Virus record (IMG/VR): IMGVR_UViG_3300034374_009547
Source of the DNA: a virus
Taxonomy: Duplodnaviria; Caudoviricetes
Length of the DNA: 64,000 bases
Reading direction: 5' to 3' (one strand)
Position numbers and translations under genes: made by a program. Shown here piece after piece: positions 11,488 to 64,000 of the stretch; the stretch's first letter is position 1, and each line of letters starts with the position of its first letter. The notes beneath the pieces are model-generated. The model was not told the DNA's origin. It saw nothing but the letters and a program-made list of their open reading frames with translations, and ran no database searches.

Positions 11488-11676
11488 ATGACTATCTCTA
11501 ATCCGGTAGTAAATAAAATTTTTAACGATCTTGAGGAACTGCACGACTTCTGCAGAACTGAAGGTTATCCATTTAACCAAGCAGATTTGTATAAGAAAGA
11601 TGCTCGTGTATGGCAGGCATTTCAAAAATACAAAAATTGGGTCCGTGCTAGAAATCGCACCAAAGGACGCAAATAA
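11488..11676 (+). CDS. Small hypothetical protein
   Basis: 62 aa, AAGG RBS, TAATG coupling to the next gene. Confidence 0.7.
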   Translation: MTISNPVVNKIFNDLEELHDFCRTEGYPFNQADLYKKDARVWQAFQKYKNWVRARNRTKGRK

Positions 11677-33358: not shown

Positions 33359-36358
33359 ATGACCGAATCACATTACTCGTTAGGTACTTATACAGCAGAG
33401 CAGTATACCGCACTACACAACGAGCTTACAAGCTCTACGGACATAGCAAATGTACCAGATAGGGTTTGCAGTTGCTCAGACGAAAAAGAACATAGTCCAA
33501 CAAGAGGATGTTTTCTTTTAACAGAAGATGAAGCAACAGCACTTAAAAACGATCCTAGGGTATTGTTTATAAACATAGATTACTTATCATATCCTGAAAC
33601 ATACGCACCGCCGCCAGACGAACTACATGCATCAGTAAGTCCATCACTATTAAACAGATGGGGCGGAAATGTAAAAGTTTACAAAGAATTTGAAGATAGT
33701 AACACTCTACCATCAACTCCAACTTCGGCAGATTGGAACAGAACTGGTTATCAAATACTAAGAGGAATGTATGAAGTAGATCCTTGGATAAATGATGGCG
33801 TTGCAGATGATACCGTAAAGTTTGAAAATATTACACAATTAGGCGACGGTATAGATGTCGATGTTATTGTTGCAGATGACGGAGCAGGATGGATAGGTCA
33901 TCCAGAGTTTCAAAACAATTGTGAGGCACCTAAACCAGATGGATACACAGGTGGCAATCTCTTGCCTGGTGAAGGTACATGCGATGTTTTAGATTTAGTT
34001 CTTGATGCGCCTTATTATTTAGATCCGGATTACTTTAATGCAGATCCTGATAATAGACTCACTACACGCTGGGACGGAACAATAGTACCTGTAGAAACTC
34101 ATTCACGTAACTGGTGGTCTAGTTCACTTTATAGGAGCAGTGCCTTTAAAGCAAAACATCCAGGTGCTGGTTATACAAGTAGTATAACAACTAGTTACAC
34201 AAGAAGTAATTGTAATGGTAGTAACACAGCACAGAGCGCTGTAGGACAGCACTGCACGCCCTGTATGGCGCTTACATACGGTAGAACACAAGGTTGGGCA
34301 TACAATGCTAACAAATGGGTTTTAAACTTGTATGGTACATATGGCTCAGATATCGAGCGTGGATTTGACATTCAAAAAATATTTCATAATACAAAACCTG
34401 TGAATAGAAAATATGGTACGCAGGATCCAACGGTGAGCTCAAATAGTTGGGGTTATCGTGCAAGCAAAGGTGATAACCCAGGATGGTATCATTTTAGAGA
34501 AGATTCACCTGTAACATATGCAGGAACAGGTGCAGAACCTACATTTATCTCGCACATGGGATCACAAGGGGATAGCGGTCGCTGGAAAAGTGAAATGAAA
34601 ACCAACTCACTTACAACTGCATTAGACGAACTTATCGACAGCGGAGTAATATTTGTGTGTGCTGCTGGTAATAGTAACCAAAAACAAACCAACTGGGGGC
34701 ATCCTGATTTTGACAACTATATCAGTGCCAACAGCGATGACACTATCGAAGAAAGCAGTTATTTTGAATTTAGCGTAGAAACCACTGGTACAACCAATAG
34801 ACGTGGATTTCCGCAACAAGGTGGCAAACATGATTTAAGTGACGGTCTCGGTAGCGATTTCTTTAAGCGTGAACTTACGGTTAATGGTGTACGTATTGTA
34901 GGAGCCGGTAGCGTTGGTGGGCAGGTAGCAGTGCCAGATGCGTGGTTAGAAAAAGTTGGACGTATGTTTGAACTTTTCTTAGACAAAAATGCCGCAGGTA
35001 TTAACGAAGAATACCAAAGAAACTTAATCAAAACACTAAGTGGCGACACAGGAACTTATCACGCAGGCTTACCAACACTTCAAAGAGTAGCAAGAGGCGC
35101 CGGTGGAGACTATAGCACAAACTTCTTAACAGATGATGGTATTACTTTTTGGAATCTATCACCACTATTTGATAGCCATGTAGCAAACGATATGGTTTGG
35201 TATTTGAATTCAACCGGTGATGGGTATGGCGATGGTGACAACGATGCACAAGAAGTTATTGAACACGTATTCCACACACTACACATGCACGGGTTACCTG
35301 CAGATGATATAAAACTATATCAGTTCTTGGCCCCTGATTGGCAGTCAGGTGATTTGTATGCGGCAATGGAAGAAGCCTATGATGCAGGCAAGTGGGATAG
35401 TTCGGGATATGGCGGAAATGCTTGGAAGACTGATGCAGATGCATTTGAAGTAGCAGCAAAAGAATATTTGTATCTGCTAAACTTTTGTATGTTTGAATAC
35501 ACAGAATTATGGGACGGCGGAAGTCTTGCTCCTGAATGGACAGACGATATGCGTACCCAAGCAGGCATTCAAGCAAATAATCCATTGGGTTATGCTTTCC
35601 ATAATACTTGGATTGCTCCGGTTATTAGTAAGCCATCGCTTGCTACTATTAGAAGCATATTCCAAGATGGCAACACACCAGAACAAGACGATCCAAGTCT
35701 AGCAGGTGTATCAGGATATGTTGTAAGTAACGGAAGTACGCAGGACCCTGAATACAACAATGGACCGCTTATTAGCAATGGAGAAGTTGCATATAAAACA
35801 ATCAACATTGGTGCACTAAATGATCAACATGCTACAGGTCCTAAAGAAAGAAAAGTTGGCTATAGTGATAGAGGAAATGCCATAGACGTATATGCACCTG
35901 CTGATGGTACACTAGCAGCAAATAGAAGTTATACTCCAGAAGGTAGATACCCTGACACGTATCCTGGATTCACAGCAAACAGCGGATCAGGTGCAGGTGT
36001 TCCTGAAGAAACTGGATTTAGTGGTACTAGTGCTGCATGTCCTGTCGCAGCTGGTTTTATTTCTACACTTGTAGGTTTAAATAGAAACTGGGGTTGGCGT
36101 GAAGTCAAAGATTATTTTGAAAGTTTGAACGAACAAAGTGATGCTAATTTTTACAAAGGTAGCGTGTCGACTAGTGCAACTGATGCTAACTGGCTAGACT
36201 ATGATGGTTTAGAAGGTGGAAGAGCAACCGTTATGTACCAAGATGCTAATTTGATTAATCAAACTACATTTCCTAAACGTCAAAGTAAAATTTCAAACGG
36301 GTTGCAAACAAGTGGAATAACTATAAACTATATTAACAAGTTTGATAGAGGACGTTAA
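33359..36358 (+). CDS. Subtilisin-like (S8) serine peptidase with an inserted zincin-like domain
   Basis: Propeptide-like EATALKNDPRV, Asp VIVADDG, His HCTPCMA, oxyanion AAGNSN, Ser GTSAACP. Insert carries EHVFHTLH. Confidence 0.8.
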   Translation: MTESHYSLGTYTAEQYTALHNELTSSTDIANVPDRVCSCSDEKEHSPTRGCFLLTEDEATALKNDPRVLFINIDYLSYPETYAPPPDELHASVSPSLLNRWGGNVKVYKEFEDSNTLPSTPTSADWNRTGYQILRGMYEVDPWINDGVADDTVKFENITQLGDGIDVDVIVADDGAGWIGHPEFQNNCEAPKPDGYTGGNLLPGEGTCDVLDLVLDAPYYLDPDYFNADPDNRLTTRWDGTIVPVETHSRNWWSSSLYRSSAFKAKHPGAGYTSSITTSYTRSNCNGSNTAQSAVGQHCTPCMALTYGRTQGWAYNANKWVLNLYGTYGSDIERGFDIQKIFHNTKPVNRKYGTQDPTVSSNSWGYRASKGDNPGWYHFREDSPVTYAGTGAEPTFISHMGSQGDSGRWKSEMKTNSLTTALDELIDSGVIFVCAAGNSNQKQTNWGHPDFDNYISANSDDTIEESSYFEFSVETTGTTNRRGFPQQGGKHDLSDGLGSDFFKRELTVNGVRIVGAGSVGGQVAVPDAWLEKVGRMFELFLDKNAAGINEEYQRNLIKTLSGDTGTYHAGLPTLQRVARGAGGDYSTNFLTDDGITFWNLSPLFDSHVANDMVWYLNSTGDGYGDGDNDAQEVIEHVFHTLHMHGLPADDIKLYQFLAPDWQSGDLYAAMEEAYDAGKWDSSGYGGNAWKTDADAFEVAAKEYLYLLNFCMFEYTELWDGGSLAPEWTDDMRTQAGIQANNPLGYAFHNTWIAPVISKPSLATIRSIFQDGNTPEQDDPSLAGVSGYVVSNGSTQDPEYNNGPLISNGEVAYKTINIGALNDQHATGPKERKVGYSDRGNAIDVYAPADGTLAANRSYTPEGRYPDTYPGFTANSGSGAGVPEETGFSGTSAACPVAAGFISTLVGLNRNWGWREVKDYFESLNEQSDANFYKGSVSTSATDANWLDYDGLEGGRATVMYQDANLINQTTFPKRQSKISNGLQTSGITINYINKFDRGR

Positions 36359-37236
36359 AAAGGAATAGGTTTAAGATTATAATTGTCTTCTAACAAAGCA
36401 TAATTTAAACCTACTCTATTTACATACCCTTCTCTTGAATATTTTTTACCAAATGTTTTGTTTGTAAAGCTGTATCCTAAAAATACCGTATCACTTGGTT
36501 CAAAATCTATTTCATTGCATATCTTTATTTGTTTACTTCTGTATTTGTTATACACATAGTCTGCTGAAAAATTTTTAAGCAAGTTTGTATGCATTCCTAA
36601 ACTTACATGATTTACATAATAGTATTCATTAATTAATTTCATTGCAATATTTTGTTCATTGGTAAAACATATTCCTGTTCTACAAAATCCAGTAACAAAT
36701 GTTTTGCTTAAACTAAACGCAACAAATTTAATACAAGGTTGATGTACATTTATATTTACATTAGCACAAGTTCCAAAAAAGGCCATATCTAAAAAGACAG
36801 GAATATCACACAAATTACAATAATCGATTATGTCATCAAAATGTTCGTGTTTGTTTCCATGGGCAGAAAATGGATAACTTATAATCAATTTATTTTGTTT
36901 AGATAACTCTTTTAAGTTATCGATTGATTTTATTCCTAAAGTATGATGATAAGGATATTCACCTCTAAATACACATGTTTCTAAATGTTTATAGCTTTTT
37001 TCAAAATCGCTAAATGCACTTGTAACTCCATCAGTGACATATGCACTAAAATTATTTAATCCAGTTACACAATTATTTTTGCTTGTTATAATCCAGTTTT
37101 TATATGTTACAATAAAAGTTTCAATATTATGCCATTTTGCAACTAAATCATATTCAAAATTTGGATCTTTTATTCCTTCAGCTCTATACGTTATCATATT
37201 TTCTTTTGGGAATTTTACTATCTGCTGAACTAACAC
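36355..37236 (-). CDS. Fold-type I PLP-dependent enzyme, paralog of 17512..18420
   Basis: GVTSAF, RGEYPYH, FLDMAFFG, SLSKTF, RTG. Start uncertain. Confidence 0.75.
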   Translation of the reverse strand: MLVQQIVKFPKENMITYRAEGIKDPNFEYDLVAKWHNIETFIVTYKNWIITSKNNCVTGLNNFSAYVTDGVTSAFSDFEKSYKHLETCVFRGEYPYHHTLGIKSIDNLKELSKQNKLIISYPFSAHGNKHEHFDDIIDYCNLCDIPVFLDMAFFGTCANVNINVHQPCIKFVAFSLSKTFVTGFCRTGICFTNEQNIAMKLINEYYYVNHVSLGMHTNLLKNFSADYVYNKYRSKQIKICNEIDFEPSDTVFLGYSFTNKTFGKKYSREGYVNRVGLNYALLEDNYNLKPIPF

Positions 37237-38305
37237 AACTTTCAGTCATACAAGGCATCGGTTTATCAAACAATTTAAATCCTGTTTCTATATTGCCAAG
37301 TGGAACGTCATGACAGCTATAACTACGCTTAATACTACCGTCTGGTTCTCTAATAATAATTCCTTGATATCCTGCATTGCAATTCCACCCTTTAAATTTA
37401 TTAAAGTTAAACGCATTAAAACGTTCTGCTTGATCCATATACCATGCTTTACCAGTACTATCTCTAAATTCAACTTGCATATGCCAAGGTACACTTGCAT
37501 CATGCTTGTACATAATGTCAGTAGGTATTTCAAACTTTGGTTTTGGCCTATCTACAAATTTTCTTTTTGATTCTGTGTAGGCTCTTTGTGGCATACCGTT
37601 CCAGAGTCTTTTAAGCATTTCGTCACTATACCCATCCACAACACGGGAGGCCGTTGGATCGGACTGGGGCTTAAGAGTAACATTAATTCCTTGTTCATGG
37701 AAGAATAAGGCGTTTTCCCAATCTCGCTCAAACCATTCAGGAACCATAACCATATTAATTGTAACTTGTACATCGTGTTCTTGACACAGGATTAGTTTAT
37801 CTGCAAAATCCTGCATTTTCTCCTTTGTGTCTAAATGCTCTGTATGAAGACTTGCTGTAATACTTGCTCTATGAAACGGCTTAACACGTTCTACATAATC
37901 CTCAAACCACTTCATTGGGCGTGAGCAGTTTGATGTCATATGGACAGAAGTATAATTAGTATTATCGACATCATCAGCCAAGTGACCAAGTATGTCCAAG
38001 TACCCTGGATGAAAGGTAGGCTCGCCCCCAGACAAACTAAAATGAAAGCTATTAAATCCGTTATCACGTGCTTGCCTCTTTATTTCATCAATTGTTTTAA
38101 GACAGAGTTCAGTCGGTCTGTGGTCTTTTCGGTCACTCCTGGCATAAGGCCAACAATAACTGCAACGATAATTGCAAAATCTACCTAGTAACCAAGATAC
38201 CGTAAAGATATCTCTGTAGAGCAGCGTTCGTTGTCCCACTTGGACAATGTCGTTAAAAGGTATTTTAGTAAAGTCATAGTTTGACCATTTTAAATCTTCT
38301 GTCAT
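37184..38305 (-). CDS. Radical SAM protein with C-terminal SPASM/twitch-like Cys module
   Basis: CNYRCSYC, SGGEPT, C-terminal CNAG..SC..CMTESC. Confidence 0.9.
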   Translation of the reverse strand: MTEDLKWSNYDFTKIPFNDIVQVGQRTLLYRDIFTVSWLLGRFCNYRCSYCWPYARSDRKDHRPTELCLKTIDEIKRQARDNGFNSFHFSLSGGEPTFHPGYLDILGHLADDVDNTNYTSVHMTSNCSRPMKWFEDYVERVKPFHRASITASLHTEHLDTKEKMQDFADKLILCQEHDVQVTINMVMVPEWFERDWENALFFHEQGINVTLKPQSDPTASRVVDGYSDEMLKRLWNGMPQRAYTESKRKFVDRPKPKFEIPTDIMYKHDASVPWHMQVEFRDSTGKAWYMDQAERFNAFNFNKFKGWNCNAGYQGIIIREPDGSIKRSYSCHDVPLGNIETGFKLFDKPMPCMTESCVSSADSKIPKRKYDNV

Positions 38306-38311
38306 ATTAGT

Positions 38312-38340
38312 ATTATATACTCATTTATTGTTTTTGTCAA
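38312..38340 (-). promoter_or_regulatory. Consensus sigma70 promoter, predicted leaderless transcript
   Basis: TTGACA (38340-38335)-17 nt-TATAAT (38317-38312), then 6 nt to ATG 38305. No RBS. Confidence 0.8.
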
Positions 38341-38999
38341 TTATGATATTTTATAAATTTTCCTACTTCCGGTCTAGGCTGATTTGAATGCACACCACGT
38401 TTGTATACAATACCATCAACCGGGCATCTCCAATATCCTTCGGCTTCAGGATTATGATCAAAATTTGGTTTTGTTCCAATACCCAAGCAAACCCATGTTT
38501 GATGATTGTCATAACCAATTTTTTTAGCAAAATAACTAGGGTCAGGAATACAACCACAAAATCCTGCTTGGTATCCTAAATCATATGCAGCATGTACTAG
38601 GTGCATTGCAGCCATTCCTACTTCCATATGTGATTGTGCAACATTGTCTATCATAACTCCAATAGGCCAATCTGTTTCAGGAACTGGTAAGTCTGTAATA
38701 GGTGTAGTAGGAACGGTAAAAGTTATAAGCAATGGTGCTGCCATTTGGGGTTGTTTGTTAAATGGTTTATGATTAGAACTATCTTGATCAATCCAAGTAC
38801 AATATTCATACATCCATAATCTTAAATCTTTATTGCTCCAATTGAAAACATCTATAAAGTATGGATATCTTCCTTGCTTACTAGGCAATGTTGCACATAA
38901 ATCATTCATTAGTTTTTCAACATGTTCTTCGGGTATAACTTCATTCATATTAAAATTGTTAAAGCTGTGCCGTGAATAAATTAATTCATTCCAGTCCAT
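38337..38999 (-). CDS. Nitroreductase-family flavoprotein
   Basis: SRHSFNNF (R.S.R.F-type FMN motif), PSKQG, EVGMAAMHL..AAYDLG..AGFCG. Confidence 0.75.
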   Translation of the reverse strand: MDWNELIYSRHSFNNFNMNEVIPEEHVEKLMNDLCATLPSKQGRYPYFIDVFNWSNKDLRLWMYEYCTWIDQDSSNHKPFNKQPQMAAPLLITFTVPTTPITDLPVPETDWPIGVMIDNVAQSHMEVGMAAMHLVHAAYDLGYQAGFCGCIPDPSYFAKKIGYDNHQTWVCLGIGTKPNFDHNPEAEGYWRCPVDGIVYKRGVHSNQPRPEVGKFIKYHN

Positions 39000-40203
39000 T
39001 TAATACTTCTCCTAACCAAGGAAATTCAACAAAATAATCTTTTTGCTTCATTCCTCCTTGTAAAATATACCAATCTTTAGCTTTTTGTAATTGGTCTAAT
39101 TTCCTGTTTGTTCCTAGCATTGCTGCAACATTTTTACATAAATTTATATGATGTATGTTATGCTTTATGTTCAAACTTTCTAAGTAATCTATTGTCTTGT
39201 TGATTTCTGTTTTATATTTTAGCGGCAAAATACGAGGACTCATTGCAGCAGGTTCATTAACATAATTATGTCCTAGTTCCCATTTATCATTACCTCTATT
39301 TTTAATTGAAATATCTGTAATAGTTTTTATCATATTATAATGATAAGGCACACTTAATGCACTTATAGTAGGAAGCCAGCTAACACTTGTTACAGAACTA
39401 TCTTGCAAAATAGTTTCTGCATTTTTCCAAAATCTTTCCCATATCAATCCTTCACGTATTGTACTTCCTTCGTTACCCATGGCATCTATACTAGGACAAA
39501 TACGTAGATTTTTTAATCCACTATCTTTCCACATATCTAAAAAGTTTTCTAAAACCTTTGGTTTTACATTTAGGTTTGTTGTTAAACTTATTCCACCAAA
39601 TTTAGCATTTGAATTTTTATGTGCATCGATGATATTTTTAAAAACATCTGTAAACATAGGATCAAGTAAAGGTTCTCCACCAATAAAATTATAATCTAAC
39701 CATTGTTCAGATTTTCTAATATATTTGTACAAGTTGTCTAAGATTTTTGTTTTCCAAATATCTTCATCTGTATTATTGTTTTTTAATCCATCAATATCTG
39801 ACCACATACTACTTACATAACCATTACAATACATACATGTCATATTGCAAGTATTACTAAGCATTATTTCAATATGTCTTCCAGTATCATAATTAGGATT
39901 TTGCAGTTTTATTAAATCACTTTGTGTAAAATTATAATTTTTCCATGTATTCCAAACGCTCCACAAACTATCAGGATGATTTAAAGCACATTCTTTACAT
40001 CCATCAGGAAAATTATTTTGTTTTACAAAAAACTTTTTTTCTTTTTGTTCTTTTTTTCTATGTAAAAAAACTTGAGTGCCTTTTTCATCAATTTCATCTA
40101 TGGTTACTTTTTGATTAGTTTTTTTACAACAATTGACTATAGACTGCTGTGGCACACGAATGTTAATATCTGTCCACATTTTACTACAAACCATATGTTT
40201 CAT
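38986..40203 (-). CDS. Radical SAM protein, N-terminal twitch-like module
   Basis: CNMTCMYC, GGEP, N-terminal C..NCC..CKEC. Confidence 0.88.
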   Translation of the reverse strand: MKHMVCSKMWTDINIRVPQQSIVNCCKKTNQKVTIDEIDEKGTQVFLHRKKEQKEKKFFVKQNNFPDGCKECALNHPDSLWSVWNTWKNYNFTQSDLIKLQNPNYDTGRHIEIMLSNTCNMTCMYCNGYVSSMWSDIDGLKNNNTDEDIWKTKILDNLYKYIRKSEQWLDYNFIGGEPLLDPMFTDVFKNIIDAHKNSNAKFGGISLTTNLNVKPKVLENFLDMWKDSGLKNLRICPSIDAMGNEGSTIREGLIWERFWKNAETILQDSSVTSVSWLPTISALSVPYHYNMIKTITDISIKNRGNDKWELGHNYVNEPAAMSPRILPLKYKTEINKTIDYLESLNIKHNIHHINLCKNVAAMLGTNRKLDQLQKAKDWYILQGGMKQKDYFVEFPWLGEVLNGLE

Positions 40204-40910
40204 TTATAGGATCCTATAACGAGTTCATCTGCATCTGGCGGACCATACTCTTTTAAATTTATATCAAATTCACGTATATCATCAAAATGTTCTAAAATAC
40301 GTTTGGCAAATTGTATGTTATTTTTTTGATTCATATGACATGCTCTTAAATCAGCAAAATCGTCTTTCATAACATTTACCTTAAAAATTTCATGATCTAT
40401 ATCTGCTATCCGTGTCATAGAAGCTTTAATAGGTTCGTTTGCTGTTCTTGTCATAGCAGGAATACACAACTCAACATTTGGCATATTCCTAATTTCTTCA
40501 ACCAACAATTTCCAGTACAAGTTTTGTTCACGTTCGTCACAAATATATTGATAATAAAATTTCAATCCTGGTGCCATCTTTTTTGCTAGTATTGATTTTG
40601 GATCCCAATCTGATCTGTTTTCTCTGCGCATTATATAATGATATCCATAACAATGTTCAATATTGTAGTCAGTTAATTTTGGTAACCATAAACGATTAGG
40701 ATTAGTATAAATTACTATCAATTTATCGTACGCAGCTTCGTGTTGTCTAATTTGGTTGTATGTCCAATACAAACTGCTACCTGCAAATCCATGGTTGCCA
40801 ATATACCAATCTGGACGCATTTCTTGTAAATGCTCTGTCCAACGTTTTTGTTTCGCTTCCAAATCGCCAGTATGTCCTGCAAAGCTATCTCCAAAAACAC
40901 CGATCTTCAT
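40200..40910 (-). CDS. SGNH/GDSL-like protein
   Basis: IGVFGDSF, NHGFAGSS, CHMN. Likely start ATG 40910 (ATGA overlap). Confidence 0.65.
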   Translation of the reverse strand: MKIGVFGDSFAGHTGDLEAKQKRWTEHLQEMRPDWYIGNHGFAGSSLYWTYNQIRQHEAAYDKLIVIYTNPNRLWLPKLTDYNIEHCYGYHYIMRRENRSDWDPKSILAKKMAPGLKFYYQYICDEREQNLYWKLLVEEIRNMPNVELCIPAMTRTANEPIKASMTRIADIDHEIFKVNVMKDDFADLRACHMNQKNNIQFAKRILEHFDDIREFDINLKEYGPPDADELVIGSYK

Positions 40911-41626
40911 GTAATCAACTCTCCTGGTATAAACCAATAATCTACAGGACCGTGTGTCCTAGTAATAGCACTTTTAAATTGTACACTATAGTAATTATTC
41001 TCACGGAGCAAAGGAACCACTATATTCTGAGGACATTCAATTTGTATTATAGGTTTATATTTACTTACCGTCCATTCTGCTCCTAAAATAATCTTAGCAT
41101 CTGCACCTTCTGCATCAACTTTTATAAAGTCTATGTTTTTTATATTTTTTATTCTAACAAATTTGTCTATTGTGTTGGTTTGTACATTTAAGACTTTTGG
41201 TTCAAAATCTTCTTTCCATCTAAATCTGTCTAGGGTGTTACCTCCCATTTTTTCTGGATTTTTAGCTCTATATTCTTCAGGAACAACATAAAATTCTGTA
41301 AGTTTTCTGTGAGAGTATAAGGGTTGTTGTACTAAGGTAAAATTTTCGTATCCTTGTTGTACACACCATTTTTTAATTTCATTAATTGTGAAATCAGGTT
41401 CAAAACCATAAACATAATCATGCCACGAACATACACCCATAGACGTCGGATAATGTAAACCAACATTTATATATGTTCCTAGTTTTTTATAATGTTTTGC
41501 AATTGCATAACCTATATGATAGTTATCGTATTGCTTTTTTCCTAGTATAAATTCATCTCTTGTAATATTTCTAACTAGTTCTATATGGTTAAGGTGAATA
41601 ACTGGCAAACTCGGGAATAATTTCAA
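40907..41626 (-). CDS. FkbM-family SAM-dependent methyltransferase
   Basis: YINVG, YGFEP, TIDKF, IDFIKVDAEG, KPIIQIE. TTG start. Confidence 0.72.
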   Translation of the reverse strand: MKLFPSLPVIHLNHIELVRNITRDEFILGKKQYDNYHIGYAIAKHYKKLGTYINVGLHYPTSMGVCSWHDYVYGFEPDFTINEIKKWCVQQGYENFTLVQQPLYSHRKLTEFYVVPEEYRAKNPEKMGGNTLDRFRWKEDFEPKVLNVQTNTIDKFVRIKNIKNIDFIKVDAEGADAKIILGAEWTVSKYKPIIQIECPQNIVVPLLRENNYYSVQFKSAITRTHGPVDYWFIPGELIT

Positions 41627-48450: not shown

Positions 48451-48482
48451 ATAAATACTTATAATATGCGTAGTTTATTGTT
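48450..48482. promoter_or_regulatory. Divergent control region with exact T4 late-promoter consensus and a shared 15-mer
   Basis: TATAAATA at 48450-48457. ATATGCGTAGTTTAT at 48464-48478 is identical to 25207-25221. Confidence 0.55.
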
Positions 48483-55963: not shown

Positions 55964-56510
55964 ACCAAATCTCCGGTTGCATAGGATCAATACTAAGTTC
56001 ATTTATATTCAAATGTTTAGGTTGATCAACTATCCATTTAATGTATTCAGCAGCAACATCAATATCCATACACTTTCTGTCAGGGTGCTTTTCTTGATTA
56101 TTACTAAGTGTACCAAAACTAATGTAAGTTACTTTTGGACCACTTGCCCAAACACCAGTTAACCCTAATGTATTTGAATAATCACGCAACGCTTTCTTTT
56201 CCGCATTGTACAACCACGCTCCGCCTTTTTTTACACGATCAGTTGTACTACCAATATTAATAATATGACAATTATGTTTTTCTAAAATGCATTTTTTGTA
56301 AACAATATCTAATAAACTTGTTTGTGTAAATCTAAATAATGCACTACAATTAACAAAAACATCATGACGTAACACAGCTTCAGCACAACGTTCCATGTCA
56401 AGTTTTTTACCAAAGTCGTAACCTGTATCTCTACTAATAAATTCAGCGTCTGGATATAGTTTAGCAAGTGCTCCTGCTACTCCTACGTCTTTATTACCTG
56501 TTATAATCAT
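55950..56510 (-). CDS. Short-chain dehydrogenase/reductase (SDR)
   Basis: IITG...VAG, FVNCS, IINIGS, YNAEK (YxxxK). Confidence 0.8.
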   Translation of the reverse strand: MIITGNKDVGVAGALAKLYPDAEFISRDTGYDFGKKLDMERCAEAVLRHDVFVNCSALFRFTQTSLLDIVYKKCILEKHNCHIINIGSTTDRVKKGGAWLYNAEKKALRDYSNTLGLTGVWASGPKVTYISFGTLSNNQEKHPDRKCMDIDVAAEYIKWIVDQPKHLNINELSIDPMQPEIWYDAS

Positions 56511-57648
56511 TCATTACCCCTAACTCAATATGATTGCCTAGTACATCAAAAAATCTATCTTGTTGCATACTTTTTGGCGCACACAATCCGCAGCCACAAG
56601 TTTGTTTAGGACAAACAATTGTAGGCAATGAGTTGCTTTCCATTTGTTTTTTTAAGTCAGCAATTAATTTTTTTCCTTCACTGATACGTCCTATAGATCC
56701 ACGCTTACCGTCAAAACGTGCTTGACATGTTTGATGATGATATATTTGATCTGTTTGTTGTTCTAAATGCAAAAAGAACCAGTTCACACTGCAATTCCAA
56801 CCTTTGAATTCTCTAAAGTCTACAAAGTTGCTTTTGCGTGACTCACTGCCGTTGTGTAACAACATGTCTCTACTGCCACAACAGGGTCTTCCAATGCTGT
56901 TGCCCAATTTTTTTGCATTTTTTACCACATCACCAGCAGCACTATTAGCATATGTTGCATCATTTTTTTGTTTCCAGTAGTTTTTCATCCATGCTAATTG
57001 TTCTTCGCTATACTTATGTGCAAATGTAGGTTTACTATCTGGCTCTTCACCTATTACTCTTGGTACAAAATCAACATTATGCTTCTGTAAAAACTCAACA
57101 AGTTCAACACATTCATCAAAATATTCAGCATGAAACATAACATTTACACTACAAGTAAAGTCGAGCATATCTCCTTGATAATGAAATTGTAAAATTCTAT
57201 CTTTAACTTGTTCTTTGAGCTTATCATCGCTTTCTGCATGATAACTTACCGTTGCATGACCAAAATTGTTCATTACAGCATAACCCATTTTTTCACTCAT
57301 AGCACCATTTGTTGTCAGTGCAAATCCAGCTTCCCATTTATCTGAGTATTTCTTTTCGTATGTATCTCGTAAATATTGCGCAAATGGTATAAAATTAGGA
57401 TTAACCGTTGGTTCGCCTCCTGTAAATCCAAAATTTGCTTCTTTAAAATTCCTATACGTCATATACAAGTCAACATATTCAAACAAAAAGTCAACATTGT
57501 TTTTTAATTCTTCTAAAGTTGCATGTTTGCTAAAATTATCGTGTCTATGCGCTGGACAATATGTGCAATCATAATTGCATCTACGTCCAGTATCCCATGT
57601 AACTTGAAAAACTTTGCCTGTTAACAGGTCAATTGTATCAAAACTCAT
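56494..57648 (-). CDS. Radical SAM protein with C-terminal Cys-rich module
   Basis: CNYDCTYC, TGGEPT, C-terminal CSV..TC..CPKQTCGCGLC. Confidence 0.9.
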   Translation of the reverse strand: MSFDTIDLLTGKVFQVTWDTGRRCNYDCTYCPAHRHDNFSKHATLEELKNNVDFLFEYVDLYMTYRNFKEANFGFTGGEPTVNPNFIPFAQYLRDTYEKKYSDKWEAGFALTTNGAMSEKMGYAVMNNFGHATVSYHAESDDKLKEQVKDRILQFHYQGDMLDFTCSVNVMFHAEYFDECVELVEFLQKHNVDFVPRVIGEEPDSKPTFAHKYSEEQLAWMKNYWKQKNDATYANSAAGDVVKNAKKLGNSIGRPCCGSRDMLLHNGSESRKSNFVDFREFKGWNCSVNWFFLHLEQQTDQIYHHQTCQARFDGKRGSIGRISEGKKLIADLKKQMESNSLPTIVCPKQTCGCGLCAPKSMQQDRFFDVLGNHIELGVMNDYNR

Positions 57649-58462
57649 TTATTTCCTTAATTGTTTCTACAACTTTTCTTTCTGCCCATGCTCTTTCCTC
57701 GCACCACCAACATTGTGTACAAATAGGAATAGTCATTCCTTCTTTATAATCCTTAAAATGGCTACATGCCTCTTTAACATTGTCATGATGATTGATATCT
57801 CCTTCACAACTTCTTGTAAGTCTGTATAAATCACCAATATTAAAAATGTAGTATTGAGCAACTATCCAATCTTTTTTTACAAATCTAAAAGGATGCACAA
57901 ATATACTTTCGGCCTTTTTACTTTGCATCCATAAATCAGTAATGTTTCCGTCTTCGGCATCTTTATCTCTATTTGTCATACGATCTTCACGTAAATCATC
58001 AGGATTTTTACTAGTAGCATTGTATACAGCATCTAAGTTATACTGCCATGCAGCAAACTTATTGTAACTTCCTACAATAATTTGATCACCACTACGTCCG
58101 TCAACAATTGGTCCTATAACTCCATGCTCTAATTCGGGTGGAATATAACATAAATGTCTTTCTTGTATAATATTAGGAAATCTATTTGCTAACCATGTGT
58201 AAACTTGATGTGCTATGTATCCTTGCCAAGGTCTAGTTTCCCAACAACGTTGATATGTAATAATATCAATTTTTGTATCAAGTTCGTTAGTATCAATAAT
58301 TGTGCATAACAAAAAGGTAAGCAATGCACTATCAGCACCACCACTTAGATTGACGCCAATTTTATTCCAATTTTTATCAAAAGGAATAATTAAATTTGAA
58401 AATTCAGATAATAAAATATCTTTAGGCACATTTTGATACATGCTATTGTTAACTTTAAACAT
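57638..58462 (-). CDS. QueC-like PP-loop ATP pyrophosphatase
   Basis: LSGGADS, TRSC..CTQCWWC..ER (QueC-type Zn site). Confidence 0.72.
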   Translation of the reverse strand: MFKVNNSMYQNVPKDILLSEFSNLIIPFDKNWNKIGVNLSGGADSALLTFLLCTIIDTNELDTKIDIITYQRCWETRPWQGYIAHQVYTWLANRFPNIIQERHLCYIPPELEHGVIGPIVDGRSGDQIIVGSYNKFAAWQYNLDAVYNATSKNPDDLREDRMTNRDKDAEDGNITDLWMQSKKAESIFVHPFRFVKKDWIVAQYYIFNIGDLYRLTRSCEGDINHHDNVKEACSHFKDYKEGMTIPICTQCWWCEERAWAERKVVETIKEINEF

Positions 58463-59783
58463 TTGCTACAATATCTCCATTTAAAAATTTATAATTTTCA
58501 AAATAATTATTAAAATCTTGTTTCCATATCACGTCAGTTTTTTCTATATACTTACAAAAACTTTTCCAATGACTACGTTTAGCCGAATAATTGAGAATAT
58601 ACTTACGTATATCTTCTAATGCACGAATAGCACTTAATATATCTTGCCATACGTGTATATTTAAAACATCATCCCAATAATATGATTCTAACTTTTTAGT
58701 ATTTTCTAAATCTAATTCTCTCTGCTTTTGCAAATCAAAAATTGAATTACGTGTATTTTCAATGTCATTTAGAACTTTACTTCTAAATTTTAGCATCATA
58801 ACAGCAGGATTAAGATAGAAGGGTGTGTATATAATACTTGCATCTATAAAATTACAATTTAAATCCAAGAAATTTAAAAAAGCATCTTTTATTTCCATTA
58901 ATTGATATGTACCTGTAGTACACACAACATTCATTTCTGTGTGTCCTTGATTGACTTCTCTAAATTTATCAATATTGCGTTTTAATACGTCCCAATCACC
59001 GTCTCTAAAATACGAATAGATACGTGGCCCTGCATCAATACTCATCATAATATGTGCATATCCAAACTTTCTCAAAGCATCACTTAATTTTACAGGATCA
59101 AAATCAGCATTAAAGTTACTATGAAAAATAATTTTAATATTTTTTGCATTAGGGTGTTGAGCTAATCTTTCTAATGTTGGAAAAAATTGTTTTTGATACA
59201 ATACTTCGCCGCCTGCAAAATCAACACGTTCTAAATTAGGAAAATTAGCATTCAAGTCATCGACAATTTCTAACGCTCTAGGCAAAGATAGTTGCATAGT
59301 CAGATCATCATTTGTATCTTGTCTATGCATCTTACCGGCTAATTGTAATAAATCATATTTTTCAACTTCTTCGTCAGGTGTATATCTTTTGAGTTTACTT
59401 AACCAGCCACTGCTAAACACTTGACTGCAATGCAAACAAGCCATATTACAACTATGACTGAAACGTATTTCTACGGTTTTTAAACCTTCAAAACTACTTT
59501 CTCCAGTTTCTTTGTTATAAAAAGAAGTGTCAGCATCTAACTGCTGTCTCATACTTTTACCAGCATTTACATGTTCAACATGCTCACACATATCACAGCC
59601 TTTACTCCATTTTCCTGACATCATTTCAAGTCTGTGTTTTTTAAAATACTCGTTATTAAATATTTCAGACGGTAAATAGGCTTCATCCATAATTTGCATT
59701 TTTTCATGCTGTTGTGGACAACTTGTTACAAATCCATTTTTATAATTTAAACCACCTAATGTGTAATAGCAATCGAGACTCAT
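58455..59783 (-). CDS. Radical SAM protein, N-terminal twitch-like module
   Basis: CNMACLHC, AGGE, N-terminal CYY..SCP..CDMC. Confidence 0.9.
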   Translation of the reverse strand: MSLDCYYTLGGLNYKNGFVTSCPQQHEKMQIMDEAYLPSEIFNNEYFKKHRLEMMSGKWSKGCDMCEHVEHVNAGKSMRQQLDADTSFYNKETGESSFEGLKTVEIRFSHSCNMACLHCSQVFSSGWLSKLKRYTPDEEVEKYDLLQLAGKMHRQDTNDDLTMQLSLPRALEIVDDLNANFPNLERVDFAGGEVLYQKQFFPTLERLAQHPNAKNIKIIFHSNFNADFDPVKLSDALRKFGYAHIMMSIDAGPRIYSYFRDGDWDVLKRNIDKFREVNQGHTEMNVVCTTGTYQLMEIKDAFLNFLDLNCNFIDASIIYTPFYLNPAVMMLKFRSKVLNDIENTRNSIFDLQKQRELDLENTKKLESYYWDDVLNIHVWQDILSAIRALEDIRKYILNYSAKRSHWKSFCKYIEKTDVIWKQDFNNYFENYKFLNGDIVANV

Positions 59784-60634
59784 AAATTCTCCAATAAAAA
59801 TCCTTCACTATTGTCAATACCCCACTGACGCTCTTGACAAAAGAAACAATCTCCACAAACAGGCGGCATTAAGCCATTCTTAATCCACATGTTACCTAGT
59901 TTTACAACATCTGCTTCGCAACTTCTTGTAAGACTTAATAAGTCATCTAAATCGTAATTTTTGTATTGAGCCATTGTAAAACTTTTTCTTACAAGGCCAA
60001 ACGGATTACAATTATTTAAAGACAATACCCATTCAAGGTTGTCTTTTATTAATTCTTCGTCTCTAAACTTGGGCTGATCTTCAGTGTTTAAAGGTGGATT
60101 CATTGTAGTTCCTGTATACATAAAATCTATTTTGTGTTTTTTCATTAAAAAATGCTCATACTCATTAACACAAATAGTATCACACTTTGAATACTTAGGA
60201 TATATTTTTTCTAAAAAAGGTTTGTTAAGTTGTGAAACATAAACATCTTCTAACTCCGTCGGAACAAATCCCCAATGATGTTCTTCAATTATATCTCCAA
60301 ACTTTTCTTTTAAATAACTTGCTACTTCTTGTGCATTGCGTTCTAACCATGGCTTTGAATTCCAAAATCTTACTGCACTAAAAAAATGTACTTTGGTAGC
60401 AATCTTATTTGTTTTTATATAATCTAACAACATGTATGCTAATATAGCACTATCAGCACCACCACTTAAACTAATAAGTATTTTATCAAAACTGCTATCA
60501 AAATGGATAGGTAATCCGTTGATATAAATCAAGTCAGGATATTTTCTCCTGTACAAAAGTTCATATTTTGCAATTTCTTTTTTATTTTTGTAAAGATTAT
60601 CTAAGTGCTTTAAATAATTTTTATCGTCCATCAA
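59780..60634 (-). CDS. QueC-like PP-loop ATP pyrophosphatase (second paralog)
   Basis: LSGGADS, TRSC..CGDCFFC..ER. Confidence 0.72.
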   Translation of the reverse strand: MMDDKNYLKHLDNLYKNKKEIAKYELLYRRKYPDLIYINGLPIHFDSSFDKILISLSGGADSAILAYMLLDYIKTNKIATKVHFFSAVRFWNSKPWLERNAQEVASYLKEKFGDIIEEHHWGFVPTELEDVYVSQLNKPFLEKIYPKYSKCDTICVNEYEHFLMKKHKIDFMYTGTTMNPPLNTEDQPKFRDEELIKDNLEWVLSLNNCNPFGLVRKSFTMAQYKNYDLDDLLSLTRSCEADVVKLGNMWIKNGLMPPVCGDCFFCQERQWGIDNSEGFLLENL

Positions 60635-62021
60635 ATATGTCCTTCATTTCAGGAAATACTTCTGCAAAACTATTACCACGCTGAGCATCACATCTTTGTA
60701 AAAATTCTTGCATCTCTGGTAAACGTCTACTCCAGTCTTCACTTTCCATAAATGATAACATACCTTCTAAACGTTTTAAGCCGTAAGGTGCGTTATCGAA
60801 CATTTCTTTTGTGACTTTACCTTTGTGCCAACTGGGCACACCAAGTTCCCAGTTTTCCTCCCACCAAGGATAAAACTCCTCATACTTTTTACGCACTTCT
60901 GCTTTAAACCATTCTGGTAACACTTTTACATTAAGGTGTGGCGGATGATACACAAAGTGATAGTTAATACCTCCTGCGCCAAATGGCCACATGTTTATTT
61001 TGTTAAACTTTTGTGTTAACTTCCATTTGATAAAATCAGGCAAATAATAGATGTTTAATGCTTGTACTGCACAAGCAACCGTAACTTCTACATTATTGCT
61101 TGTTTCTTTATCTAAAATATGAAACACTTCTTCTGTGCGTTTCCATTCACTTGGATAACGTATATAGCTGTTCATTTCATGTATACTATCTACCGAATAG
61201 TGAAAACGCACAAGTTTGAATTCTCTCCATAGATCAAATAAATCTTCTCTCCATTCGACTCCATTTGAGTTATAACGTAGTTCAAGGTCTTTTGCAATAC
61301 CTTGTCGAATTGCTTCTTCAAGTATTTCATAATGCTCCTCAATAATAAGACTTTCGCCACCTGCAAAATATATCTGTTGCATATTTGGCATTTGTTCGTA
61401 AAACTGCTTCCAAAACACATCATTTTGTTTGTGCCAGTTGTAACTACTGCCATTTGTACTTCCTTTATCTTGCCATTGCATAGTTTCTTTAAGAGATTCA
61501 TTTTGAACAGCAGGAAAAATCTTTTTATAATCTTTAATCCAGCCACTACTATCATGCGGACTACACATAACACAAGCAAGTTGACATTTTGTTCCAAAAC
61601 GTAAATCAATGTATGCTAGTTGAGGAGGTACTTCTCCATCTTCTGTTGTATTTGCAATTAAGTCATTTACATTAACACGCTGACTCCAGTATGCTGTTTC
61701 CCACATACGTTTTGAATTGTGTCCTGCTGCTTCTTCTTTATAACACTTTAAACAACTAGGAGGCTTTTCGCCATTCATCATTTGCTTGCGCACATTCTTC
61801 ATATAATCACTATTCCAAGCAGTCTGGAAATCAGTAACATTCAAATTGTTGGGTTTACCATCATCTGTTTTTAAGATGCCAACTTGTCCACCATGTTCTT
61901 TGTCATTTGTTGGACCAACACTTGATGCATTGGCTGTGCAACATACTCTCATGCTGCCATCTGGTCTTGTGCTTAGATGCACCCATGGTAGGATGCAGAA
62001 TGTATCGGAAACTTTGCTCAT
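60621..62021 (-). CDS. Radical SAM protein, N-terminal twitch-like module
   Basis: CQLACVMC, AGGES, N-terminal CILPW..RVCC..CLKC. Confidence 0.92.
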   Translation of the reverse strand: MSKVSDTFCILPWVHLSTRPDGSMRVCCTANASSVGPTNDKEHGGQVGILKTDDGKPNNLNVTDFQTAWNSDYMKNVRKQMMNGEKPPSCLKCYKEEAAGHNSKRMWETAYWSQRVNVNDLIANTTEDGEVPPQLAYIDLRFGTKCQLACVMCSPHDSSGWIKDYKKIFPAVQNESLKETMQWQDKGSTNGSSYNWHKQNDVFWKQFYEQMPNMQQIYFAGGESLIIEEHYEILEEAIRQGIAKDLELRYNSNGVEWREDLFDLWREFKLVRFHYSVDSIHEMNSYIRYPSEWKRTEEVFHILDKETSNNVEVTVACAVQALNIYYLPDFIKWKLTQKFNKINMWPFGAGGINYHFVYHPPHLNVKVLPEWFKAEVRKKYEEFYPWWEENWELGVPSWHKGKVTKEMFDNAPYGLKRLEGMLSFMESEDWSRRLPEMQEFLQRCDAQRGNSFAEVFPEMKDIFDGR

Positions 62022-62032
62022 ATTGTACTTAC

Positions 62033-63307
62033 CTAATTATCTGCGTATTTAATTAATGTTTGAAAACATGCGTCTTTCCAACTCGATGTTTTACCATATT
62101 CGTCAGGAAATCCAGCAAATCCTTGTTTAGGAGCTGGTGTTTTTTTATACATGAATTTATAATAGTCTTTTAACGTTTGCTTGTCTGCTTCTGCTAAGTA
62201 TTGCTTGCTATTCATAAACCTTCTATCTAGAAATGGTGCTCTTGATTCAATAGTAAAACATCCTAATGCTAAATTTGCACCCATACATGCAGCTGGAATA
62301 AAATACTTTTGATCACTTAACTTATTATTAACTAAAAAGTTAGATTTGTCAATCTCAAAATAATCAGAATAAGGAGTTCTTTGTTTTAAACTATACCCAG
62401 GATAACCGCCAAATATTTCATCCGCACCTTCACCTGTGTAAAGTATGTTAATTTTTCCTTGTAATTTTTTACCTAAAATATAGTACCCTATCCAACTCCA
62501 TGTATATGGAAACAAATATGTTGCTTCAATAAATTCATCTGTATAATTACACCATTCTTCTTCTGTGATATTATATGCAAAATCTAAGTCATTACTAACA
62601 AAATCTTTTCCAATATGATTGAGTGCCACTTGAAATTCACCAAACCATTTACTTACTAAACCGCTATCAACTCCACCGCTGTTTATACTTGCACTTTTAA
62701 GTTTACTAGAATAATCAATTATCATGTTATGGAACGTTGTATACACAGGCACATCTTCATAACATGGTTCAACACTATAAGGTTCTACACTATAAATATC
62801 TTGCCACGGTGTTTCATTAAAAATATAATGTTTAGATTGTTTCCATAAATGTAAAGCATTTTTATTAATACATGTATTTGTAGTTTTTACTATACTTTTA
62901 ATTGTATTAGATATAACAAAATGTCCGTCTTTGTTATATACAAATAAAGGTATTTGTCCAGTTTTATCTCTACCATACTTTATTTCTTTAGTTTTTTTAT
63001 TATAAAATACATAGGCATACATTCCGTTATAATGAGATATAGAATTACCATTTACTAAATCATGGAAAAACATTTCTGTATCGCAGGTAAACTTTCTATT
63101 GTAATTGTAAATTTCACCTGTGTACAAAAATAAAAAATTATCATTTTCATATAAATCAAAATTTATATCATTTACACAAGGTAGCACACTTTGAATAGCA
63201 AAATAATCTTTGTCTATAAAAACCCTATCATCTATTCCACGTTGCAAAACATCTTTAAAATCATAATCAAATTTTGGATGCTGGTTACTAAAATAAAATC
63301 CGCACAT
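62033..63307 (-). CDS. asnB: Asparagine synthetase B-like glutamine-dependent amidotransferase (compact)
   Basis: N-terminal MCG (Ntn Cys2), GEIYN, GRDKTG, SGGVDS, GEGADEIFGGY, ESRAPFLD. Confidence 0.88.
   Translation of the reverse strand: MCGFYFSNQHPKFDYDFKDVLQRGIDDRVFIDKDYFAIQSVLPCVNDINFDLYENDNFLFLYTGEIYNYNRKFTCDTEMFFHDLVNGNSISHYNGMYAYVFYNKKTKEIKYGRDKTGQIPLFVYNKDGHFVISNTIKSIVKTTNTCINKNALHLWKQSKHYIFNETPWQDIYSVEPYSVEPCYEDVPVYTTFHNMIIDYSSKLKSASINSGGVDSGLVSKWFGEFQVALNHIGKDFVSNDLDFAYNITEEEWCNYTDEFIEATYLFPYTWSWIGYYILGKKLQGKINILYTGEGADEIFGGYPGYSLKQRTPYSDYFEIDKSNFLVNNKLSDQKYFIPAACMGANLALGCFTIESRAPFLDRRFMNSKQYLAEADKQTLKDYYKFMYKKTPAPKQGFAGFPDEYGKTSSWKDACFQTLIKYADN
62042..62051 (-). promoter_or_regulatory. 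Putative late-promoter motif variant
   Basis: TAAATACGCA on the - strand, 20-30 nt upstream of ATG 62021. Related to the TGCGTA motif at 25210 and 48467. Confidence 0.35.
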
Positions 63308-63999
63308 TACAAATTGTTACTACCCCATTCAAACATTTCAAACATTATTTTATTTTCAACTTCTTTACTATTAGGAATAGTAATTTCAAATTTTTGAAAT
63401 TGATATTTGACGTTTAAAGGTATGCTAACTTTTTCTCCATCTAAATCTTGTGTGTGTTTTTGTAACCTTTCTAAAAATAAATCGATCCTAAAGCGGTCTT
63501 CTGGTACATCACTATTCCATCTTAAATATCCGTTAGGATCCCATCTATTAAAGTTACCATGTTTTACCATACATTGTAGTCCATGATGTTTTTCTTTTCC
63601 AACAAAAAATGCATATAATTTTTTATCTGCATATATGTCCTGTATGTCTTGTAAACTTTTTATTGTTTTTAAAACTTTGCCATTATCATTAAAAAATTGT
63701 GGAACTACTCTAATTACACAACAAGGCTTGTTAAGCCAAATTAATGAGTTCATAAGTGTGTTACCAGGATGAACTCTACTAGGCCAAATGTATACTGGAT
63801 AAACATTTACAGAATTCTTATACAAATCACAGCATAATTCAATTATTTGGGTTGCACGCCGTTGACATTCGTCAGCTACAAAACATTTAAATAATTTCAT
63901 GTCTGTATAACCTAAATACTTGTGTGGCGGATCGAGCCATTCTTTTCCTTTTACATACTTGTGCTGATCATACCATTCATGTGTTTTATAATATACAAA
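63307..63999 (-). CDS. Hypothetical protein, 5'-truncated by the window edge
   Basis: The frame of ORF 63307..63900 stays open to 63999 (FVYYKTHEWYDQHKYVKGKEWLDPPHKYLGYTD-MKLF...). Confidence 0.7.
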   Translation of the reverse strand, partial: FVYYKTHEWYDQHKYVKGKEWLDPPHKYLGYTDMKLFKCFVADECQRRATQIIELCCDLYKNSVNVYPVYIWPSRVHPGNTLMNSLIWLNKPCCVIRVVPQFFNDNGKVLKTIKSLQDIQDIYADKKLYAFFVGKEKHHGLQCMVKHGNFNRWDPNGYLRWNSDVPEDRFRIDLFLERLQKHTQDLDGEKVSIPLNVKYQFQKFEITIPNSKEVENKIMFEMFEWGSNNL

Positions 64000-64000
64000 T

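Follow-up and report, generated by a model that had tools for sequence, protein, structure and literature searches.

The IMG/VR virus record IMGVR_UViG_3300034374_009547 (Duplodnaviria; Caudoviricetes) provides a stretch of 64,000 nucleotides, here called the window, in which positions 36355-63999 are occupied by a dense island of genes for radical S-adenosylmethionine (SAM) enzymes that may tailor sugars. Genes are named by their lower coordinate (e.g., 41589 for 41589..42752), and labels beginning with L or G denote public contigs and genomes. The window part of the island holds 29 open reading frames (ORFs), 26 on the minus strand and three in a plus-strand cassette. An earlier note on this DNA had claimed a gap-free array with 14 radical SAM genes. 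All 14 minus-strand ORFs were found where it had placed them, each with one CxxxCxxC motif and a match to PF04055, and together they make up 16,587 of the 27,645 bases (60%). The packing is equally as described, given that neighbouring genes either overlap by 1-104 bases or are separated by gaps of 11, 31 or 32 bp (the widest being 32 bp). Because all junctions are of these two kinds, the window part has no room for an intergenic precursor-peptide gene, as the note had also stated. Promoter-like sites (110 versus 118 expected) and terminator-like sites (11 versus 7 expected) occur at chance level, so the operon structure was deduced from gene overlaps only.

The island goes on for 18 kb past the window end in public contigs L124 and L127, which encode an identical 60621 protein and carry the same sequence. 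The gene at the edge (63307..63999, minus strand), to which no function could be assigned, is represented in the window by its 3' part and encodes 274 amino acids in full. Six further radical SAM genes lie in the continuation, three of the N-terminal-twitch type described below and three resembling 52510 (L127:13248, 14652 and 16806). The continuation also encodes an AMP-binding ligase, a second nitroreductase-like protein (L127:11257-12195, a paralog of 38337) and a weak match to FeeM-like N-acyl synthases. Window part and continuation thus add up to about 45 kb, and the whole island to about 20 radical SAM genes, 14 of them N-terminal-twitch. Between two island genes about 6 kb past the window end (L127:11031-11255) there is an ORF of 74 amino acids, and ORFs of 74-78 amino acids stand at the matching position in four sister phage islands.

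The PF04055 gathering score (29.5 bits) is exceeded by 13 of the 14 radical SAM proteins (35-68 bits), with 38986 at 26.7 bits. Ten of them (41589, 42739, 43829, 47254, 50302, 51372, 53499, 54815, 58455 and 60621) also pass NCBIfam NF033640, the N-terminal-twitch radical SAM (N_Twi) type, with 195-424 bits against a cut-off of 170 bits over a 398-position model. Protein 38986 aligns to NF033640 over its full length at 168.2 bits, slightly below the cut-off, while 37184 and 52510 score 42 and 56 bits, respectively, and no score is listed for 56494. Three types are therefore represented in the window: 11 N_Twi enzymes, 52510, and the pair 37184 and 56494.

All 14 radical SAM genes are on the minus strand. 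The N_Twi genes, given with their NF033640 scores, are 41589..42752 (404.8 bits; a conserved core gene, 71-73% identical in relatives), 42739..43836 (204.2 bits; SPASM match at residues 4-67, before the core), 43829..45013 (282.4 bits), 47254..48450 (278.3 bits; SPASM match at residues 3-65), 50302..51375 (230.7 bits), 51372..52517 (228.6 bits), 53499..54815 (387.2 bits), 54815..56002 (232.1 bits), 58455..59783 (194.8 bits) and 60621..62021 (423.6 bits), the most conserved gene of the island. The divergent 38986..40203 has a long branch in the tree and keeps the invariant Cys residues and the GGE motif. Gene 37184..38305, also part of the conserved core, matches PF04055 at E 9e-16, with CNYRCSYC at residue 44 and GGEP at residue 93. 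It is joined by 56494..57648 (PF04055, E 5e-9; 22% identity to 37184 over 346 amino acids), which has a Cys-rich C-terminus. Gene 52510..53502 combines a PF04055 core (residues 15-181) with a C-terminal SPASM domain (PF13186, residues 245-323), and its best NCBIfam match is a tungsten-cofactor maturase family at 70 bits, far below the cut-off of that family.

The N_Twi proteins have a distinctive domain order, i.e., a four-Cys twitch module, the CxxxCxxC core and a helical C-terminal domain. Residues C8, C26, C76 and C79, the core residues C123, C127 and C130, and G186-G187-E188 (41589 numbering) are invariant in the 11 paralogs and in a 75-sequence alignment of the family; the GGE(P) SAM-binding motif is present in 37184, 52510 and 56494 too. 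In eight N_Twi paralogs, Pfam SPASM-type matches fall at residues 3-94, ahead of the core. BtrN, a 2-deoxy-scyllo-inosamine dehydrogenase, is the founding twitch radical SAM enzyme and was the analogy on which the earlier note relied. The analogy extends to the module only, in that the first 70 positions of a paralog profile (4-73) align to the C-terminal twitch of BtrN (residues 167-237) at E 2.9e-5 and both have one four-Cys auxiliary cluster. However, the twitch is C-terminal in BtrN and N-terminal in N_Twi enzymes, and no BtrN-specific similarity is seen in the N_Twi core.

The AlphaFold (AF2) model of 41589 has a predicted local distance difference test score (pLDDT) of 96.4. Its core (residues 111-352) superposes on anSME, SkfB, viperin, BlsE, EpeE and MoaA with Z 11.9-13.9, the closest being anSME, SkfB, viperin and BlsE (Z 12.9-13.9), at 11-19% sequence identity to solved structures. 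The N-terminal 110 residues fall outside these alignments, and Foldseek returned no solved chain that covers them in the same arrangement (template modelling (TM) score at most 0.42 by query length). No characterised member of NF033640 was found in the open-access literature or among solved structures.

These structural matches bear on an alternative that involves no sugar, in which the enzymes would epimerise, cross-link or oxidise a phage protein (e.g., the fibre or subtilase) or a peptide encoded elsewhere, in the manner of ribosomally synthesised and post-translationally modified peptides. In favour of it, anSME, SkfB, CteB, SuiB and the epimerase EpeE are among the structures that the core resembles most, a subtilase gene adjoins the island, and the 74-amino-acid ORF of the continuation is conserved. 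However, the gaps in the window part, none wider than 32 bp, leave no space for a precursor gene, and the 74-amino-acid protein has neither Cys nor a repetitive core. A leader-binding (RRE) domain was not seen in the N-terminal regions, where about 100 residues are covered by SPASM-type profile matches only. Furthermore, the FkbM, AsnB, SGNH-like and aminotransferase-like partners, together with the coupling of bacterial relatives to GT2 and UDPG-dehydrogenase genes (see below), are typical of glycan loci. Protein or peptide modification is accordingly rated as rather improbable, and the evidence for sugar tailoring is taken up again after the history and composition of the island.

A relative of 60621 is encoded in 201 IMG/VR stretches, the best 80 of them being 82-96% identical. 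The paralogs are old and distinct, with pairwise identities of 22-40%; the only recent duplication within the island is that of 50302 and 51372 (40.6% identity). In a maximum-likelihood tree of window, sister-phage and bacterial members the window copies are scattered (13 label changes over 14 rows, no better than shuffled). Recent tandem amplification was rejected on the grounds of these identities and the lack of clustering. Three orthogroups, those of 60621, 53499 and L127:4433, unite phage and bacterial genes, and 53499 is sister to a Bdellovibrio/Halobacteriovorax clade. The ratio of nonsynonymous to synonymous substitution rates (dN/dS), measured for the nine island genes of which the sampled loci contain orthologs, is 0.05-0.17, indicating purifying selection; individual values include 0.055 for 60621, 0.056 for 37184, 0.08 for 56494 and 0.17 for 53499. 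Judged by their sequences, the radical SAM genes of the island are not decaying copies.

Five long sister contigs contain 9-17 NF033640 matches each. Comparison with four sister contigs reveals a conserved core of 60621 (83-90% identity), 37184 (85-91%), 41589 (about 72%) and several genes at the operon head, amid gene sets that otherwise differ. At the DNA level, orthologs of the AsnB-like gene, 50302, 51372, 52510 and 54815 are missing from all of the 80 loci with 60621. This mosaic content corresponds, on the comparison made here, to the pattern of a hypervariable locus. The earlier note had named acquisition en bloc of a single well-characterised bacterial pathway as an outcome that would speak against it. 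That explanation was rejected, given that no equivalog-level NCBIfam match was obtained, the paralogs are scattered over the family tree and the content is mosaic. The identical 60621 protein occurs in 57 blocks of public assemblies.

The radical SAM genes are interspersed with accessory genes, which are on the minus strand unless stated otherwise. Pfam matches bear out the identities that the earlier note had given to four of them. These are two FkbM-family methyltransferases, 40907..41626 (PF05050, E 2.8e-15; 57.3 bits against a cut-off of 22.7) and 46638..47261 (E 6.3e-13; 49.6 bits against 22.7), the nitroreductase-family flavoprotein 38337..38999 (PF00881; 28.8 bits against 23.5), and the AsnB-like glutamine amidotransferase 62033..63307 (PF13537, E 2.5e-10; PF00733, E 7.6e-10), which begins with MCG and so has the nucleophile of class II amidotransferases.

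For the other names there are leads. The two genes called QueC-like, 57638..58462 and 59780..60634, encode paralogous PP-loop ATPases (33% identity) of a QueC/NAD-synthase-like amidotransferase fold. They have SGGADS at residues 40 and 57, respectively, a CxxCxxC motif (C-terminal in 57638) and QueC-like Atlas neighbours. However, their profile matches are weak (TilS_N and ATP_bind_3 for 57638; PP-loop/NAD synthase for 59780), and no QueC profile was matched by either with E values up to 5 allowed. Gene 36355..37236, which ends the island, had been called a pyridoxal phosphate enzyme. It encodes a short aminotransferase class I/II-like protein of 293 amino acids, whose Atlas neighbours (0.98-0.99) carry Aminotran_1_2 and whose own match to this family is weak (PF00155, E 0.019). 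Gene 45006..45887 is a candidate for a DUF6445/2-oxoglutarate (2OG)-Fe(II) oxygenase-like protein, the Atlas lead (DUF6445/2OG-FeII_Oxy_3, 0.93-0.95) and an HxD motif (HND at residue 122) agreeing with the name that it had been given, but it has no Pfam match; it is 64-70% identical in some relatives. For the putative short-chain dehydrogenase/reductase 55950..56510, a short Rossmann-like protein of 186 amino acids, the PF00106 match is weak (E 0.0018); it reaches up to 92% identity in relatives, with dN/dS 0.05.

Five genes had been described as SGNH enzymes, and all five have an N-terminal G-x-S motif, but only 49818 has a Pfam match, which is weak (GDSL_2, E 0.029; 15 bits against a cut-off of 32.9). 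Two of them, SGNH-like by motif only, lie in the minus-strand array: 40200..40937 (GDS at residue 16; no significant profile match) and 45881..46741 (GCS at residue 40; no profile match). The other three form the plus-strand cassette inside the array (48483-49181, 49169-49843 and 49818-50372), with G-x-S at residues 7-8. A C-terminal D-x-x-H is found in 48483, 49169 and 40200. The paralogs 48483 and 49169 (36% identity) both have DGYH/DGHH near the C-terminus, and 40200 and 49818 share 34% identity over 76 amino acids. Of the T4 late-promoter core TATAAATA the window has 3 copies, fewer than the roughly 12 that would be expected; one of them (48450-48457) falls within the divergent gap of 32 bp and precedes the cassette start by 26 bp.

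The genomic company of bacterial relatives is the first line of evidence that connects the family with sugars. A genome scan was seeded with the three closest paralogs, the alignment of all 11 being too divergent, and the bacterial loci that it returned are biased to one subfamily. Relatives were found mainly in Bdellovibrionota, often as several clustered paralogs. NF033640 was passed in 30 of 150 other Bdellovibrionota genomes (with copy numbers up to at least 11), in 2 of 200 Pseudomonadota and in 0 of 14 controls, and is thus about twenty times more frequent in predatory Bdellovibrionota than in Pseudomonadota. In a cultured Bdellovibrio isolate (G006), a 40-kb cluster on a 2.2-Mb chromosomal contig encodes six N_Twi proteins, three 52510-like proteins, one protein like 37184 (58% identity), one like 60621 (59%), two like 36355 (26-29% identity, E 1e-27 to 1e-37) and one like 55950. 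Its 25 other genes include those for four GT2 glycosyltransferases, UDP-Glc/GDP-Man dehydrogenases, two NAD-dependent epimerase/dehydratases, a DegT aminotransferase, a GNAT protein and a polysaccharide lyase. GT2 genes overlap with both the 60621 ortholog and the 37184 ortholog, and a UDPG-dehydrogenase gene with a further N_Twi gene. Among 113 neighbour proteins in 11 other bacterial genomes, GT2 (4) and GT1 (3) are the most frequent, followed by DegT, PMT_2 and GDSL (2 each).

The second line comes from the phages themselves. The island of sister phage G001 includes an epimerase/dehydratase gene (E 8e-44) and a DegT-type aminotransferase gene; in G004 a GT1/epimerase pair is encoded at another place in the genome, and a single GT8 gene in sister contigs lies far from the island. 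At the operon head, just past the window end, L127:3510-4433 encodes a protein of 307 amino acids that is 68-77% identical in four sister contigs. It has thousands of unannotated metagenomic homologs and no Pfam match. Within its VDGDN motif, D65-G-D67 (DxD) is invariant in 20 homologs. The top 50 Foldseek matches of its model (pLDDT 85.5) are all GT-A glycosyltransferases, VIA re-alignment gave Z 8-9.9 over about 130-140 residues, and it aligns to PBCV-1 A64R, mimivirus R699, STIV A197 and chlorovirus hyaluronan synthase. On its model, the protein is predicted to adopt the GT-A fold of nucleotide-sugar transferases, and it has their DxD motif.

Taken together, the island is read as a system for cytoplasmic, strain-variable tailoring of a sugar or glycan by soluble enzymes, a reading for which we see the chances as evenly balanced. 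The earlier note had proposed a tailoring factory for a glycan or hypermodification; this is supported in part, and indirectly, by the GT2/UDP-sugar linkage in Bdellovibrio, the epimerase/DegT genes of a sister island and the GT-A gene past the window, with the lack of a recognisable glycosyltransferase or nucleotide-sugar gene in the window part on the other side. For the substrate, the individual reactions and the carrier, we infer the following scheme. An N_Twi enzyme would cleave SAM via the cluster bound by CxxxCxxC, producing a 5'-deoxyadenosyl radical that would take a hydrogen from one particular sugar carbon, each paralog having its own C-H bond. Handling of the electron would fall to the four-Cys auxiliary cluster, by analogy with BtrN-type dehydrogenases and radical epimerases. 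Oxidised or rearranged positions could then be converted from keto to amino by the aminotransferase-like protein; this pairing recalls the logic of BtrN and its aminotransferase. The AsnB-like and PP-loop enzymes may turn carboxylates into amides or amidines, the FkbM enzymes may O-methylate, and the SGNH-like, 2OG-like and reductase-like proteins may finish further positions. GT-A-type transferases from the operon head would attach the sugar.

Given that the paralogs are old and distinct and that the gene set differs between close relatives, the decoration is probably strain-specific and serotype-like. The most likely carrier, put forward tentatively, is a virion protein, e.g., the neighbouring putative fibres; in favour of this, the island encodes no membrane proteins and structural genes lie next to it. 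Should the enzymes act on sugars, the island would amount to a natural library of some 20 different radical reactions on carbohydrates and, if the whole reading is true, a variable viral "serotype" locus comparable to giant-virus glycan clusters.

Several points weigh against sugar tailoring. Profile searches recognised no glycosyltransferase, nucleotidyltransferase or nucleotide-sugar enzyme in the window part; GT2 was looked for in four sister contigs and NTP_transferase in five, and neither was found. The fold match of L127:3510-4433 is moderate (TM about 0.3, Z below 10), and the nucleotidyltransferases MobA and IspD score alike. The bacterial sugar linkage is read from gene neighbourhoods and amounts to guilt by association. 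Contigs of metagenome-assembled genomes (MAGs) with identities up to 86% make up many of the "bacterial" loci and may be misbinned phage DNA, for which reason we relied on long contigs and the cultured strain. The solved cores nearest to 41589 include the peptide and protein modifiers anSME, SkfB, CteB and SuiB beside the sugar-nucleoside enzyme BlsE. In favour of the reading, metatranscriptome contigs (at least 99% identity; four runs from four studies) cover 18-22 of the 30 bins of 44001-64000, which is compatible with transcription of the island; the point on the other side is that DNA carry-over may account for them. A putative block for 7-deazaguanine DNA modification contains a fifteenth N_Twi gene (16000-16926, plus strand), which is 20 kb away from the island, encodes 308 amino acids with CDLTCDGC at residue 99 and matches a profile of the island paralogs at E 7e-50.

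The last point opens the real alternative that the array tailors a group, possibly a sugar, on phage DNA or its precursors in cooperation with the 7-deazaguanine genes, its variation reflecting a restriction arms race. Glycosylation of DNA is known from T4-like phages. The block of the fifteenth N_Twi gene also contains a QueE-like gene (21375-22271, plus strand), 30-38% identical to phage QueE genes. Likewise, the product of 11676-12851 (plus strand) has a homolog (69% identity) in the cultured Synechococcus phage BUCT-ZZ01, a hypothetical protein whose gene sits three genes from FolE, QueD, PRTase and QueE. This cyanophage, with which part of the deazaguanine block is shared, has no N_Twi gene. 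Homologs of 8580-10136 (plus strand) were found only in PA5oct-like, Phosso and Vibrio jumbo phages, with the Callisto homolog about 3 kb from queE. Further in favour, both island genes for QueC-like PP-loop enzymes have radical SAM genes on either side, and all island enzymes are soluble. However, the island has no TGT/DpdA-like, kinase or base-exchange gene, the PP-loop proteins reach no QueC profile threshold, and the Bdellovibrio counterparts belong to a polysaccharide-type locus with GT2 and UDP-sugar dehydrogenase rather than DNA-modification genes. Since the N_Twi gene, the QueE-like gene and the cyanophage-linked gene share one block, DNA or nucleotide hypermodification stays in consideration, as an unlikely explanation. 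A version that merges both ideas appears quite improbable: the N_Twi enzymes would be new sugar C-H catalysts, a changeable set of about 20 of which would hypermodify a DNA-attached sugar via the 7-deazaguanine pathway and yield strain-specific glycosylated deazapurines as an anti-restriction device.

The product could also be a diffusible small molecule, aminoglycoside-, nucleoside- or cofactor-like, that is made in the infected cell and directed, e.g., against competitors or grazers or at host reprogramming. Soluble enzymes only, BtrN-like twitch modules beside aminotransferase-like and amidotransferase genes, and the AMP-binding ligase and weak FeeM-like N-acyl synthase match of the continuation are in keeping with such a product. 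Nevertheless, we rate it as rather doubtful, as there is no exporter, resistance gene or scaffold-forming enzyme (cyclase, non-ribosomal peptide synthetase or polyketide synthase), the GT-A-like gene and the structural-gene neighbours point to a macromolecular acceptor, and the content varies among close relatives beyond what one metabolite usually shows.

The earlier note had counted the host surface among the possible targets. No island ORF has a membrane-like segment, save one borderline window in the PP-loop region of 59780, and direct assembly of a surface polymer is disfavoured for this reason. A less direct route, by which altered host nucleotide-sugars make the host display a changed O-antigen or capsule and block superinfection, would draw on the same sugar-gene linkage as sugar tailoring of a virion component, and the lack of NTP_transferase in all five sister contigs suggests that host nucleotide-sugars are relied on. 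This remodelling is nonetheless very unlikely in our view, because the island has no flippase, polymerase, lipid-carrier transferase or membrane protein, and about 13% of a lytic T4-like genome is a high price for exclusion. The seroconversion modules known to us need fewer than about 20 distinct radical enzymes.

Sugar tailoring, the preferred reading, finds its nearest parallels in chlorovirus and mimivirus glycan clusters, mycobacteriophage virion glycosylation and bacterial O-antigen and capsule loci, where strain-variable sets of sugar enzymes likewise stand beside structural genes. To our knowledge, those clusters consist of nucleotide-sugar dehydratases, aminotransferases and glycosyltransferases, not of radical SAM enzymes. 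Classical sugar genes are few in the island, where radical SAM genes take up 60% of the sequence. With respect to the family itself, ten island genes agree with NF033640 over the full model and in domain order; what differs is the number of paralogs, 11 in the window part and 14 in the whole island, and their presence in a phage. What is new here is thus a putative sugar-tailoring cluster built from an uncharacterised, domain-permuted radical SAM family with an unusual number of paralogs. NF033640 is a large family whose auxiliary-cluster module is permuted, and the phage lineage is common in aquatic metagenomes. The enrichment in Bdellovibrionota hints at a role at the predator-prey surface and provides cultured organisms for functional work.

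Multiple radical SAM genes in T4-like phages have been reported before. A marine T4-like environmental genome of 183 kb, TARA_ERS488813_N000010, has 12 (2017; PMC5332604), which were reported as a count of Fe-S proteins, with no family, context or function given (PMC5332604). The T4-like Campylobacter phages of the CP220 group also have several (PMC3322345). Kinship with the CP220 set was rejected, because its seven matches all score at most 31 bits against NF033640. Two true NF033640 members, annotated as hypothetical, were found in the cultured Ralstonia jumbo phage RsoM2USA.

The phage origin assumed in the earlier note is confirmed by a family B DNA polymerase in the window (phrog_262, E 4e-197), accompanied by a phage ATPase and an HNH enzyme. 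The best relatives of the polymerase are in the jumbo phages Phosso, Atu_ph07 and Vibrio phage 2.275.O (45-51% identity; 47-51% for Phosso and Atu_ph07). The replicon is a jumbo T4-like phage. Its genome is estimated at about 350 kb from CheckV on sister contigs (256,558 bases at 72% completeness), which puts the island at about an eighth of it. A search for near-identical DNA returned no match of the island among GenBank phages, and a search with the 60621 protein against isolated phages found three only, all weak.

Adjacent to the island, 33359-36358 (plus strand) encodes a protein of 999 amino acids that matches phrog_9158 at residues 4-487 and has a subtilase domain (PF00082, Peptidase_S8) at residues 785-919 only. 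The gene is convergent with 36355, and their ends overlap by 4 bp. The earlier note had placed the island next to subtilase and tail-fibre genes, of which the former is supported by PF00082, whereas the putative tail fibre (31549-33348, 599 amino acids) has no Pfam, PHROGs or PDB sequence match. PDB sequence searches with 57638, 36355, 31549, 8580 and 11676 gave no useful match.

Some minor observations concern the phage lineage and the wider family. A search of five sister contigs for Fe-S assembly genes found one A-type carrier in one contig, too little to be informative. The NF033640 family comprises 8,283 clusters (50% identity) at E 1e-30 or better, and many members are tandem fusions of about 800 amino acids with two complete N_Twi units, a few being larger. 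In bacterial loci, two proteins with Peptidase_S74, a fibre-chaperone domain, are encoded within 7 kb of family members. Most of the 11 family matches of the MAG G010, labelled Gammaproteobacteria MED685, are on a single 108-kb contig (C3), whose proteins are 59-86% identical to those of window genes (86% for 37184); this contig probably comes from a phage of the same lineage and was misbinned.

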